DNA of 64,000 nt from a virus (Duplodnaviria > Caudoviricetes), in the IMG/VR virus record IMGVR_UViG_3300028886_000036, positions 32,001 through 96,000 of that record; one strand, written 5' to 3'. The notes under the pieces were generated by a model, which searched no databases, was not told the DNA's origin, and worked only from the letters and a program-made list of their open reading frames with translations. A program made the translations under genes and the position numbers. Below, piece after piece: positions 29,201 through 51,954 of the stretch (position 1 is the stretch's first letter; the number at the start of each line of letters is the position of its first letter).

Positions 29201-32174
29201 CTTATGGGATGCCGGAAAGGAAGCTTGGAAAAAATATTGGCCAACGTTATTGGCTTCAGCGAAAGTTTATTTTGTACAAAAAGTTATTCCAGCAATAGGT
29301 AATATATTAGAAAAAGGTATAAATTGGATTGTTGAAAAAGCTAAAGGCTTAGTTAATATGGACAAAGAATCTGAGCTTATAAAAAAGGCCGAGAAAGAAC
29401 AGTTTGATTTATATAGTAAAGAGATTAAGAATAGAGCGATTGAGTATAGTAAATCAGATCATTTAGCTGAGCTTGGAAATCCAACGGCGCTTCAAATGCA
29501 TGAGGTTATGGATGCTTTGGATCCAAAAACTAGACAACAGTTATTAGAACAGCAAAATGGTGTTGGCAACAATAAGTACATTGGTGGTGTAAGCTCCAGT
29601 TATGAAGGTAAAGTCGTAGAAGAAGTTTCTGGTACTAAATTAATAAATATGCTTTTAGATAAAAAATTTTTCAATGGAGCTGAATATGTTAGAGACGACA
29701 AAGGTAATATAAAAATAGGAGCAGATGGAAATGCTATTAGAACAACTAGTATACCTTTTTCTGATATGGGAAAGGTTTTAGAAGCTTTAAAAGCGGATAG
29801 AAATGATGCTTTAGCATTAGCTTCTTTTAAAAATTATACTGAACTATTATCAAATAACCCATGGTTACAAGGTACTGAATTTAGAAGCATATTTGAAAAA
29901 ATAGATACAACGATGTCTATAGTAAGTGATGAAGAAAACTATAAGAAATCTATGGATGAGCTTATACAGAAACTAAAAACAGGTGAAGTATATCAAGATC
30001 TAGTTAGAGCTATGGTTAATAGCCCTTACACTTATGTTTCACAATATACTGGAAATGAGATTAGCATCACCGGAGATAAGCTTCTTATGAGCGGTATGAA
30101 ATTAGAAGAAGTAGCTTCAAAATTTGTGAAAAACTTAGAAGAACAAAATGAAAAAAATTTATCTAATAGTATACAAAGAGCTAAATTAGCTGATAAACAA
30201 TTTAAAGATGATGCTAGACGAAAAGAAGAAGAAGAAAGAGCTAGGTTAGCTGAAGAAAAGGCTAGAAAAGCGGCAGAAGAAAATGAAAAGAAAGAACAAG
30301 AAAAACGTAGTTTTACGGATAGTGTAAAGTCTTTCTTTGGTTTTTCAGATAAAACTAATGCTGGTGGGGCTGGTTCATTAGGAGTTATAGCACAATGGGT
30401 TCAATCTGGGAAATTTAAACAAGCTATGGAAACAGCTATGGGATGGATTGGAGATAAAATCGGGGGTATTATAAAGTTTTTTAAGTCACAGAATTACGGT
30501 AAGATATTTGCTGATACTATGTCAGGGCTTGGATCGGCATCCGGAGCTATCTTATCAGCACTTTATGGAGCAGATAAGGCTGATACTTTTTCTAGAAATG
30601 CTTATAACTATGCTGTCAAGCATAATTTGAAGTATGCTAAAGCATTCTTTGGTGGAGCTAGAAAGTCTATACTTATGAGTGTAGATAATATTGCAGAACA
30701 TGCTGCTAAGACAGGTCAAACTGTACAACAGATTTATGAGTTTCTTCAATCTCAAGGTGTAGAAAAACAATATATGCCTGGTGGAAAAGAATATGATCAA
30801 GGTAAAGGATACAACACTCAAGAAGAAAAAAAATATCATGGAAAGATTACAGATGCCAATGGCAATTATATAGGAGATAAATTAGGGCTTGGCGATGATT
30901 CTGATTCGAGATTTAATATGGCACGAGCTAGAACATTTAGTGGAGAAGGAACCCGTATTAACTGGCAAGATAGCTATAGTAAATTTGGTATAAATATTAA
31001 ACGAAAAATGGAATCAAAATATGGAATTTTAGCTCTTGATGTGCCAACCTATGCTAAAAATACAAATAATGCAAAACTTAATGCTTACTTAAAGAATTTA
31101 GGCATTGAAGGAAAAACAGCAAAGGAGTTATGGGGTAATAATGGTGAGTTATGGTGGGGTAAAGGTGGAAATAGAGAAAAGATTCTAAAGGCTATGCAAG
31201 ATCCTAATTCTGGTTTTGGAACCGAAGCTGATAAGATAGCATATATGAAAAATAACTATTGGAACAATTATAAATTGTATAAATTTAAAGATCCGGCTAC
31301 TTCCGGGTTGTTATTAGATAGTTATTGGGTTGGTGGAGGACAAGAAGTATTAAGAAATACATATAATGTTATGGCTGAAAAATATAAAAGACCAGATATG
31401 AAGATAAATTATATAAAAGGTAAAGATGGTAAATATAGGTGGGAGAACTATAAATTATTTGATGATGCTCATATTAACTTTGCAAACTCTACTGGGAAAT
31501 TTTTTGCGGCTGAAGTTTTACGTCAGTCTGCGTTAAGATATGAGAGCCTAGGGAGGAGACCAGATCATAAAGATGATTTAGAGGGTTGGAGAAAAAGAGT
31601 TCGAGATAATGCTGCATATTGGGGTATAAAAAGATTTGATAATAATGGCAGCTATGCTTTTGGATTTAGCGATACAACTTCTTATGACAAGTTAGCATAT
31701 GGCGATGATAAAATAACTAAATCTTACGATAATGGTGATATAACTAACGAAACATTTACTAGAAAATTAAATGAGTTTATACAAGCACAAGGTACTAAAA
31801 GATTTGACACATCTTTTTCAAAAATTCTTTCTAAAACTGGTGGAAGTGGCAGTGAATATAATCGTATGCTCAAAATATTTGGTACAGATGAAAAATCTAA
31901 GAAGTTTATGGCGAAAGTTGTTGATATTGAAAAGAAAGCTCCGTCAGAATGGACAAAGGATGAGGCTGATATCATGGCTAAATTTGCTGGTTTAGTTGAC
32001 AAATATGAAGCAGAATCTAAAAGTAGAGGTAACACAAGCACAATATTTTATAATACTATTACAAGTCAAACAAGCTATATTACCAAATTACTTGAGAAAT
32101 ATCATGGAAATGATGAAGCTAAGCGCACAGCCGTAAATAATACTAGAAAAGGCATGATAGAGGCTAAACATTAA
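26268..32174 (+). CDS. Tape-measure-like protein with C-terminal GH108-like muramidase region
   Basis: 1968 aa, helical/coiled-coil, W-periodic amphipathic segments; EG...SKFGI, YMKNNYW...LLDS, GWRKRV motifs. Confidence 0.6.
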   Translation: MSDNLNSGSLLSSLSGSARPARTTTPMTNSSNAGNNSILPGSMSSSQRQAINREFLDNQTRQTNLLNSNAMLNNLAAQNQGMMNQFNGSLMRQMGAIDAAANKITNAITNQTNQLVSAITNMSSSITESIKGLQEGINNLFYERARAYASKLEYEEDQNIYKDYAENFIKTFFSEKIMNILTSIEFVSLKEVKEQTLKYLMQNGGVAKFLGIKPLGSDRANNMVPFTKDIADAILESSKHLLVIANAVNNINRDTPIILENFGGALIDKQDTLLNINREQLISTNRIGNILDAFSNNYMNVNQARVTEPMRGAIDVIREVTGNNQVQNIADLQREIQRLEGTLNNERQIAQRYADRDDPNSEYNRRRNQLEQDIFRNGGAERQQLREQLNQAGLTQNQRRQITQRIQQLNGQLQVLDNELRNWTQDYRNLGANAWGRNSLTNANVRRSRAETEREVARLERALRTLRRGARNQNSFDEATRNGFGANYLESEIRNIEAYASGRSGRFSSRGRMTQNKAQKDDRAKLMETLRDSINKNVYQTEENTKALNKSISAMDVFKTSLLAAINPMNIKKIGEFGYKLFKFVSPFFMYRWGLQMLTGKSPLPLIGETLPGLLSKPLNYVSSIQLGDKTLGERASGWWGTIKTTLAEFYNNHLKGIWESIKDNLASFKETFIGWIGKDWWMRIYDTWEAVKKYTSLGWDAFLNPDTEKAAIAREQIVTSIKSAMKDVVIKYLLPGIVYGIGAYTAFKNVTNPGKFLSELYRPVKFLGRRFGGGFRTRVYNFNEARTVLQDSAINELQRYNKEFGLSNIRTNLRADERGNPVLTLRANRFGNLRSTNFTGQFNQERVLGNAARTLMDRLGVDRQTADSMLREAATGGGASYRISRLATSIGNGLKNVTRVLSAFMRGTTWVFNIGTTLFSLYKMWNFFKDKVKQIAEADGITGGMRDMVLYATKKGISTLLDVGKEIWKELPIVMGSLWDAGKEAWKKYWPTLLASAKVYFVQKVIPAIGNILEKGINWIVEKAKGLVNMDKESELIKKAEKEQFDLYSKEIKNRAIEYSKSDHLAELGNPTALQMHEVMDALDPKTRQQLLEQQNGVGNNKYIGGVSSSYEGKVVEEVSGTKLINMLLDKKFFNGAEYVRDDKGNIKIGADGNAIRTTSIPFSDMGKVLEALKADRNDALALASFKNYTELLSNNPWLQGTEFRSIFEKIDTTMSIVSDEENYKKSMDELIQKLKTGEVYQDLVRAMVNSPYTYVSQYTGNEISITGDKLLMSGMKLEEVASKFVKNLEEQNEKNLSNSIQRAKLADKQFKDDARRKEEEERARLAEEKARKAAEENEKKEQEKRSFTDSVKSFFGFSDKTNAGGAGSLGVIAQWVQSGKFKQAMETAMGWIGDKIGGIIKFFKSQNYGKIFADTMSGLGSASGAILSALYGADKADTFSRNAYNYAVKHNLKYAKAFFGGARKSILMSVDNIAEHAAKTGQTVQQIYEFLQSQGVEKQYMPGGKEYDQGKGYNTQEEKKYHGKITDANGNYIGDKLGLGDDSDSRFNMARARTFSGEGTRINWQDSYSKFGINIKRKMESKYGILALDVPTYAKNTNNAKLNAYLKNLGIEGKTAKELWGNNGELWWGKGGNREKILKAMQDPNSGFGTEADKIAYMKNNYWNNYKLYKFKDPATSGLLLDSYWVGGGQEVLRNTYNVMAEKYKRPDMKINYIKGKDGKYRWENYKLFDDAHINFANSTGKFFAAEVLRQSALRYESLGRRPDHKDDLEGWRKRVRDNAAYWGIKRFDNNGSYAFGFSDTTSYDKLAYGDDKITKSYDNGDITNETFTRKLNEFIQAQGTKRFDTSFSKILSKTGGSGSEYNRMLKIFGTDEKSKKFMAKVVDIEKKAPSEWTKDEADIMAKFAGLVDKYEAESKSRGNTSTIFYNTITSQTSYITKLLEKYHGNDEAKRTAVNNTRKGMIEAKH

Positions 32175-50925: not shown

Positions 50926-50943
50926 GAAAGACGGTGATATAAT

Positions 50944-51234
50944 ATGCCAGGAGCTGCAAGATTAGGTGATAGTTGCACTGGTCATGGTTGATTTCCCAGT
51001 AGAGTTAACGTAGAAGGAAGTCACGATGTATATATAAATGGTATTCCAGCACATCGACAAGGAGATGGTTGGGCAGTCCATTGTTGTGGAAAATCCTGAC
51101 ACGGTAGCTCATTAGCTGCAGGTGCAGCTAGGGTATATGTTAATGGTAAACAATTGGGTTATATTGGTGCTCCAGTAGCCTGTGGGAGTTCAGTTTCTTC
51201 GGGTTCAAGCGATGTAATAGTTAATCCAGCTTAA
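50944..51234 (+). CDS. PAAR/gp5.4-like spike-tip protein, 96 aa, with two in-frame TGA codons (candidate selenoprotein)
   Basis: MPGAARLGDSCTGHG*FPSR...HRQGDGWAVHCCGKS*HG...VYVNGKQLGYIGAPVACGSSV; GGTGA RBS; TGA at 50989 and 51097. Confidence 0.88.
51097..51142 (+). promoter_or_regulatory. Candidate bacterial SECIS element
   Basis: UGACACGG...UAGCUGC-AGGU-GCAGCUA hairpin starting 14 nt after UGA; resembles fdhF UGACACGG...UGC-AGGU. Confidence 0.7.
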
Positions 51235-51249
51235 GAAAGGAAGATTTAT

Positions 51250-51954
51250 ATGAGTTTTGTATTGCATGAGATATCAAACAATCTATTATTGAATGAAGAG
51301 GATATTCGTAATCTATTGCACAATCAAGTAATTGAAGATGCTAATAGAAATTTAGGTCTTAAAAAGTATAATGTTAATGCTACTGATATATGTGGATGTA
51401 TAAAGGCTCTATATTTTAAATTTAAGAATATAGAGCCATCTAATCCTCCATCCTATCCTTATTCTCCAATAGTACTTAATGTTGGTTCTGTTATACATAC
51501 TATAGTAGAAATGCTTTTAAAGCCAGAAGAAAAAGAAGTTTCTATTAGGTGTAGTCTACATGGTTTTAATTTGAATATGAGAGCAGATGCTATATATCAT
51601 AATAAGGTACTTCATGAATACAAAACTATTGATAATATAGATGAGAAAACTACTTGTAAAGAAGATCATTTAAAGCAAGCAGTAATTTATACGTATCTAT
51701 TAAATACCTATTGTAATAGATCTATTGAATGGATACAAATTATCTATATTGCTAGAGGTAAAGTTAATGTCAAGGTGTTTAACATACAAGTAACACCAGA
51801 ATTGATGTCTAAAGTAAAAGATAGATTAGACAGACAATTAAGTTATTTAAGAACTTGTTTAGATAGTAATACTGTACCTTCATTTGAAAATGAATTTTGT
51901 AAATGCAGTAAATTCTGTGAGTATTATGAGTTCTGTAAATCATTATCATCATAA
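51250..51954 (+). CDS. Cas4-like PD-(D/E)XK exonuclease
   Basis: N-terminal C, G..IH, RADA...EYKT, Q...Y, C-terminal C..C...C Fe-S-type cluster. Confidence 0.8.
   Translation: MSFVLHEISNNLLLNEEDIRNLLHNQVIEDANRNLGLKKYNVNATDICGCIKALYFKFKNIEPSNPPSYPYSPIVLNVGSVIHTIVEMLLKPEEKEVSIRCSLHGFNLNMRADAIYHNKVLHEYKTIDNIDEKTTCKEDHLKQAVIYTYLLNTYCNRSIEWIQIIYIARGKVNVKVFNIQVTPELMSKVKDRLDRQLSYLRTCLDSNTVPSFENEFCKCSKFCEYYEFCKSLSS

Follow-up and report, generated by a model that had tools for sequence, protein, structure and literature searches.

The window analysed here is a 64,000-nucleotide stretch (positions 32,001 to 96,000) of the virus record IMGVR_UViG_3300028886_000036, a 275,466-bp genome rated as complete by CheckV. 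It derives from a jumbo myovirus only distantly related to phiR1-37 and PBS1/AR9 (27-30% sheath identity); no closer cultured phage was found. At window positions 50944-51234 (+), among baseplate and tail genes, lies a frame of 96 codons running from ATG (50944) to TAA (51232-51234) without frameshift, preceded by a Shine-Dalgarno-like GGTGA motif (50933-50937) located 6 nt before the ATG. The same motif and spacing occur in relatives. The frame is interrupted by TGA at codon 16 (50989-50991, G-H-G-*-F-P) and codon 52 (51097-51099, K-S-*-H-G), and standard gene callers leave it uncalled. The observation made in the first-pass annotation, an intact gene for a PAAR spike-tip protein carrying two in-frame UGA codons, was thus confirmed.

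To identify the product, we read TGA as Cys and compared the resulting protein with known families. It matched the Pfam PAAR_motif profile (PF05488; E 9.8e-14, 51.8 bits against a 27-bit cut-off; 39.6 bits on the raw frame), and aligned to solved PAAR proteins including P1 UpfC (9VYI, 4.6e-14), Vibrio cholerae VCA0105 (4JIV, 3e-9), Escherichia coli c1882 (4JIW) and T4 gp5.4 (2.6e-5). H14, H46, H53 and C80 align with the three His and one Cys of VCA0105, residues which hold the apical zinc in such proteins (PMC10715212). The three His are invariant among 120 homologues and C80 is Cys in 119, the single exception being a TGA-encoded residue. No structure was predicted to examine the conical beta fold, and no gp5/VgrG-like spike partner was identified, since the neighbouring 264-aa and 166-aa proteins gave no Pfam or PHROG hit. 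The 234-aa gene just downstream (51250-51954, +), conserved in synteny in all relatives, matched PHROG 1706, labelled 'CRISPR/Cas system associated' (E 1.6e-24), and had no Pfam hit.

Conservation of the TGA codons and their restriction to Cys columns

Sequencing error and neutral decay of a redundant copy had been named in advance as outcomes that would overturn the proposal. Raw reads and RNA were not examined, but the same TGAs were present in contigs from more than 10 independent samples and assemblers. Database proteins 75-97% identical to the product proved to be the same gene translated with TGA as Trp by gene callers using code 4, and their DNA, from independent assemblies of different samples, carried in-frame TGA. 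Further searches added other members of this low-GC clade, designated here by L numbers for their contigs: L144, L146 and L147, forming one lineage with both TGAs; L154; L157, from a 293-kb relative; and L159, from a 113-kb relative. In L157 and L159 the gene again lies in an uncalled gap. In total, TGA16 is kept in six diverged lineages (the window with L002-4; L005-7; L008/L159; L144/146/147; L154; L157) and TGA52 in three, despite 31-40 synonymous codon differences per pair. Pairwise dN/dS was 0.11-0.18, with dS near or above 1. A search of the complete genome revealed no second PAAR gene. In L144/L146 the gene carrying two internal TGAs also terminates at a TGA, so that termination and recoding at UGA would coexist within about 300 nt. 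In L157 (8421-11878) and L159 (9280-12235), a gene with faint or weak NUMOD1/I-HmuI-like hits sits directly upstream of the sheath gene and the called sheath product of L157 is shorter (625 against 763 aa), which may reflect a homing-endonuclease insertion.

We next asked whether the phage uses another genetic code or recodes its late genes. Code-11 ORFs cover 88-91% of the genome and TGA ends 37 of 298 greedily chosen ORFs, six of them in the window, all on the minus strand. No other uncovered stretch contained a convincing TGA-bearing frame. The single Trp of the PAAR gene is TGG and its five Cys are TGY. An alternative code or late-gene recoding was rejected. None of the 41 plus-strand (structural) ORFs of the block spanning the window (genome 25-100 kb) ends in TGA, against 37 of 257 elsewhere in the genome; 29 ORFs counted in the window itself gave 24 TAA and 5 TAG. 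This may be ordinary TAA preference in highly expressed late genes, or could reflect avoidance of UGA terminators when UGA decoding is active.

To determine what the TGAs stand for, we aligned 120 homologues, as the first-pass annotation had suggested in order to test for Cys at both positions. Column 16 is Cys in 81 and column 52 in 90, and the remaining sequences lose each of these columns only together with a partner column. Columns 16 and 48 are both Cys-like in 86 sequences and neither in 34, with none discordant; columns 47 and 52 are both Cys-like in 92 and neither in 28, again with none discordant; columns 16 and 52 vary independently. The TGA-encoded residues fit this rule only if counted as Cys-like. 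In L008, L154 and L157, where column 52 is Ser or Val, Cys47 is also lost. We conclude that the protein possesses two coupled pairs, 16-48 and 47-52, flanking the zinc-binding histidines, with one member of each pair encoded by UGA in the window. Spatial adjacency of these pairs was not checked on a structure.

A search for homologues alternating between TGA and Cys codons had likewise been suggested as a test. A pattern scan of IMG/VR identified PAAR genes with TGA at column 16 in at least nine further lineages, mostly of higher GC content and some from IMG genome-derived records, and a scan of species genomes identified five more in MAGs; in all, TGA16 is found in more than 12 phage or prophage lineages outside the low-GC clade. 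In low-GC contigs related to the window, TGA also occurs at column 48 (L148 and L149/L150) and at the zinc-ligand column 80 (L151-153, codon 82, in addition to column 16). No in-frame TGA was seen at a non-Cys column.

RNA elements and decoding machinery

To look for SECIS-like signals, we first examined W-type TGA16 lineages, in which Trp follows the UGA (G-H-G-U-W-P). All 12 distinct sequences have a 5-bp hairpin at +16 to +29 with G22-U23 in the loop, and the wobble-position pair 18-27 changes in a compensatory way (C-G, U-A, U-G). Only 1 of 27 Cys homologues has such a hairpin: L035 (IMGVR_UViG_3300042283_000261; loop G-A-U-C), which may be a recent Sec-to-Cys reversion. A BLAST search of the window's hairpin region against E. 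coli gave no match, but the fdhF element read directly from K-12 has G23-U24 in its loop. In L151, the column-80 TGA is followed by a textbook arrangement: an 11-nt spacer, a 7-bp stem and a G-G-U triloop at 22-24. Sec at this column would place selenium in direct coordination of the apical metal.

In the window, the 42 nt after TGA52 fold at -14.4 kcal/mol, among the most stable 0.5% of sampled genome windows. The element, H2 (51113-51130), is an fdhF-like SECIS candidate with a 7-bp stem and an A-G-G-U loop, 13 nt after the UGA. H2 shows a compensatory U-A to A-U change in L005, and in L144, where two Ala have become Ser, it is rebuilt in a slightly shifted register from GC-rich codons that are unusual for a 30% GC phage. 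In contrast, the 42 nt after TGA16 fold at only -1.6 kcal/mol (78% of genome windows fold as well or better), the consensus local fold is -1.9 kcal/mol, and neither single folds nor the consensus revealed a convincing conserved hairpin. A stem-loop with G/U in its apical loop at the expected distance (about 11-20 nt) thus follows TGA52 but not TGA16, and for the gene as a whole the question of a SECIS after each UGA is not settled either way. At codon 27 (51022-51024) the window has His (CAC) where all close relatives have Pro (CCC or CCT), a change that also breaks a small 3-bp G-G/C-C hairpin which the relatives could form at +27 to +36 after TGA16.

Folding of the stretch from TGA16 through H2 in each lineage predicted the same closing helix, H1, in four of six MFE folds. 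Its 5' arm (51002-51011) starts 10 nt after TGA16 and its 3' arm (51101-51110) ends 2 nt before H2; positions 14-19 and 21-23 after TGA16 pair with positions 113-122. On an alignment of six sequences, 94% of the cells in this helix pair, compared with 34-50% when the partners are slid. Pair 16-120 occurs as C-G, G-C, G-U and U-A, pair 18-118 as U-A, C-G and U-G, and pair 15-121 as A-U and U-G; none of 500 shuffles reached the observed covariation score. In effect, codon 21 is the reverse complement of codon 55 in every lineage, even though both amino acids change. L157 keeps the helix with a one-base slip, although in L154 and L157 the MFE fold prefers to pair the same 3' stretch with the UGA16 codon and the bases after it.

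Three observations make a functional link between H1 and TGA16 plausible. H1 and H2 persist in L008, L154 and L157, which have TGA16 but no TGA52. The path from TGA16 to H2 (10 nt, one base pair, 2 nt) is about as long as the 13-nt spacer from TGA52. Finally, L148 and L149 have Cys at column 16 and TGA at column 48, and in both the same pre-H2 stretch pairs with bases 8-10 nt after their own UGA, looping out about 23 nt. In L148, by our own reading of the bases, two of the six core H1 positions (G15-G121, U16-U120) cannot pair; this was not checked in L149.

A phage-borne selC or UCA-anticodon tRNA, and selABCD in the host, had been proposed beforehand as tests of Sec decoding. The phage encodes eight tRNAs, none with a UCA anticodon. 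The tRNA-Sec model touches only a tRNA-Leu, below the cut-off, and neither SelA nor a SelB wing domain was detected. No relative of the sheath or of the F-type PAAR (Phe after the UGA, the window's clade) was found in 185,579 species genomes. The host of this phage is unknown, and its selABCD genes are therefore unverified. We therefore turned to genomes carrying relatives of the gene as a proxy. SelA is encoded by four of five genomes with a TGA-type PAAR (E 1e-133 to 1e-142), the exception being an incomplete MAG, and by none of 12 genomes carrying Cys-type PAARs of the same family (Fisher's exact test, calculated by hand, about 0.002). A tRNA-Sec scored over the Rfam cut-off in three of the five. 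Adjacency of tRNA-Sec and PAAR in the Bacillota MAG was rejected: the first 23.6 kb of the 43.5-kb contig carrying the tRNA-Sec, including the tRNA-Sec site, do not hold the PAAR gene.

Selenocysteine as the probable reading of both UGAs

Taken together, these results indicate that this is the functional spike-tip protein of the phage and that both internal UGAs are most likely translated as selenocysteine by the SelA/SelB/SelC/SelD system of the host, the phage supplying only the mRNA signals. The interpretation offered in the first-pass annotation, that host SelABCD places two Sec residues beside the metal-binding His, perhaps as a diselenide, is partly supported. Its core is strongly supported by comparative evidence, and we consider Sec at both positions more probable than not, although selenium in the protein was not assayed and two Sec codons in a 96-codon gene should be translated inefficiently. 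A 16-52 diselenide is contradicted by covariation, which pairs column 16 with 48 and 47 with 52. Gene integrity, conservation of the TGAs, their restriction to Cys columns, the RNA helices with their covariation and the association with SelA are shown by the analysis, whereas insertion of Sec rather than Cys, sharing of one SECIS and formation of Se-S bonds are inferences drawn from it.

In our tentative view, H2 is the SelB-binding SECIS of the gene and serves both UGAs, which lie 108 nt apart. With the ribosome at UGA16, H1 would stand at the mRNA entrance, loop out about 95 nt and hold H2 at SelB-compatible spacing; the ribosome would then melt H1 and the inner domain and reach UGA52 with H2 13 nt ahead. 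Related phages would re-wire the same pre-hairpin stretch to whichever Cys codon has become UGA. This mechanism rests on about six lineages, and we know of no precedent for a bacterial SECIS acting through a long-range helix. Sec16 would partner Cys48 and Sec52 Cys47 next to the zinc site at the cone apex, probably forming two selenylsulfide or S-S-like bridges that stiffen the membrane-piercing tip. Se-S bonds form and persist at lower redox potential than S-S bonds, and could cross-link the tip in a reducing cytoplasm or an anoxic habitat. Sample labels of the relatives, and a deer-omasum Pyramidobacter MAG, suggest ruminant gut, an inference from names only. An alternative or additional benefit would be throttling synthesis of a protein needed once per virion. 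Sec at the zinc-ligand column of L151-153 would show that replacement is not confined to the paired positions.

Of the alternatives, the least unlikely is that the UGAs are decoded in a SECIS/SelB-dependent way or by near-cognate reading, but with mostly Cys inserted, through Cys-charged tRNA-Sec when selenium is scarce, a tRNA-Sec-like tRNA-Cys or misreading by tRNA-Cys, yielding an ordinary Cys-PAAR at a low, regulated level. Restriction to Cys columns fits Cys as well as Sec, only one PAAR is needed per virion so inefficient decoding is tolerable, and nothing here distinguishes Se from S. However, the co-occurrence with SelA, the enzyme that makes Sec-tRNA, and the hairpins of fdhF geometry speak against it, and repeated independent TGY-to-TGA changes need some advantage over plain Cys codons.

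Slightly less likely is that only UGA52, with its canonical spacing to a hairpin, is a classical Sec codon, UGA16 being decoded by unknown means and H1, which rests on few lineages, serving mRNA stability or translational pausing. Yet TGA16 is the more conserved of the two and has its own SECIS-like hairpin in other phages, H2 is kept where TGA16 is the only UGA, and L148 and L149 build analogous bridging helices for their own UGA. Less likely still, the UGAs could be leaky terminators read by tRNA-Trp or another near-cognate tRNA, throttling synthesis or releasing short N-terminal peptides. UGA is the leakiest stop codon in bacteria and TGA16 lacks a local hairpin, but in-frame TGAs fall at four Cys columns across many lineages and never at Trp or variable columns (which had been named beforehand as refuting the Sec reading), counting them as Cys-like gives perfect pair covariation (0 of 120 discordant), the phage carries no suppressor tRNA, and readthrough at about 1% each would give roughly 1e-4 full-length product; the association with SelA is unexplained under this reading. 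A pseudogene or assembly error, suggested only by the absence of gene calls, is refuted by the comparative data.

Comparison with known systems

Full-text literature searches found no report of a phage selenoprotein or of a Sec-containing PAAR. The elements that appear new are two UGAs in one PAAR gene, inferred Sec at four different Cys columns within one clade, the covariation-defined partners, the SelA contrast between TGA-type and Cys-type carriers, and the bridged, possibly shared SECIS. Selenoproteins are known as redox enzymes of cells, and a selenium-containing structural protein at the piercing tip of phage particles, recurring in many phage lineages, would extend selenium biology to virion architecture. 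Phage infectivity would be tied to host Sec machinery and selenium supply, which could act as a host-range determinant and help predict hosts. These genes are systematically missed or mistranslated by gene callers. The two-UGA gene with one hairpin and a bridging helix bears on the rule that each bacterial Sec codon needs its own adjacent SECIS, and the paired Cys/Sec positions offer a natural system for comparing S-S and Se-S cross-links in a small, structurally known fold.

Compared with the solved PAAR proteins VCA0105 (4JIV), c1882 (4JIW), T4 gp5.4 (4KU0, 5IV5) and UpfC (9VYI), the product is of similar size (about 95 residues) and conserves the three His and one Cys of the apical zinc site, but belongs to a phage subfamily with two extra covarying Cys pairs that the solved proteins lack. 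The recoding matches the bacterial SelB/SECIS system in every feature we could test, except a local hairpin at the first UGA. Compared with E. coli fdhF (Sec140) and its SelB-bound SECIS, the mRNA at TGA52 shares the first eight bases after and including the UGA and the G-C-A-G-G-U apex, and L151 reproduces the 11-nt spacer and G23-U24 loop exactly at column 80. However, the H2 loop lies 3 nt further from the UGA than in fdhF, no bulged U is evident, two UGAs are accompanied by only one such hairpin, and the gene belongs to a virus and encodes a structural protein, not a redox enzyme.

The only viral selenoproteins named in a recoding review (PMC8310308) are the glutathione peroxidases of poxviruses (molluscum contagiosum, fowlpox). 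There too a virus relies on the Sec machinery of its host for one of its own proteins, but those are captured cellular enzymes of eukaryotic viruses with eukaryotic SECIS elements, whereas the present gene encodes a bacteriophage virion protein with a candidate bacterial in-ORF SECIS. Finally, distal SECIS elements of eukaryotic and archaeal 3'-UTRs, as in selenoprotein P, provide a parallel for one RNA element servicing more than one UGA. Here the element is inside the ORF, and would reach the distant UGA only because a helix loops out the intervening RNA, which keeps bacterial-type close spacing.
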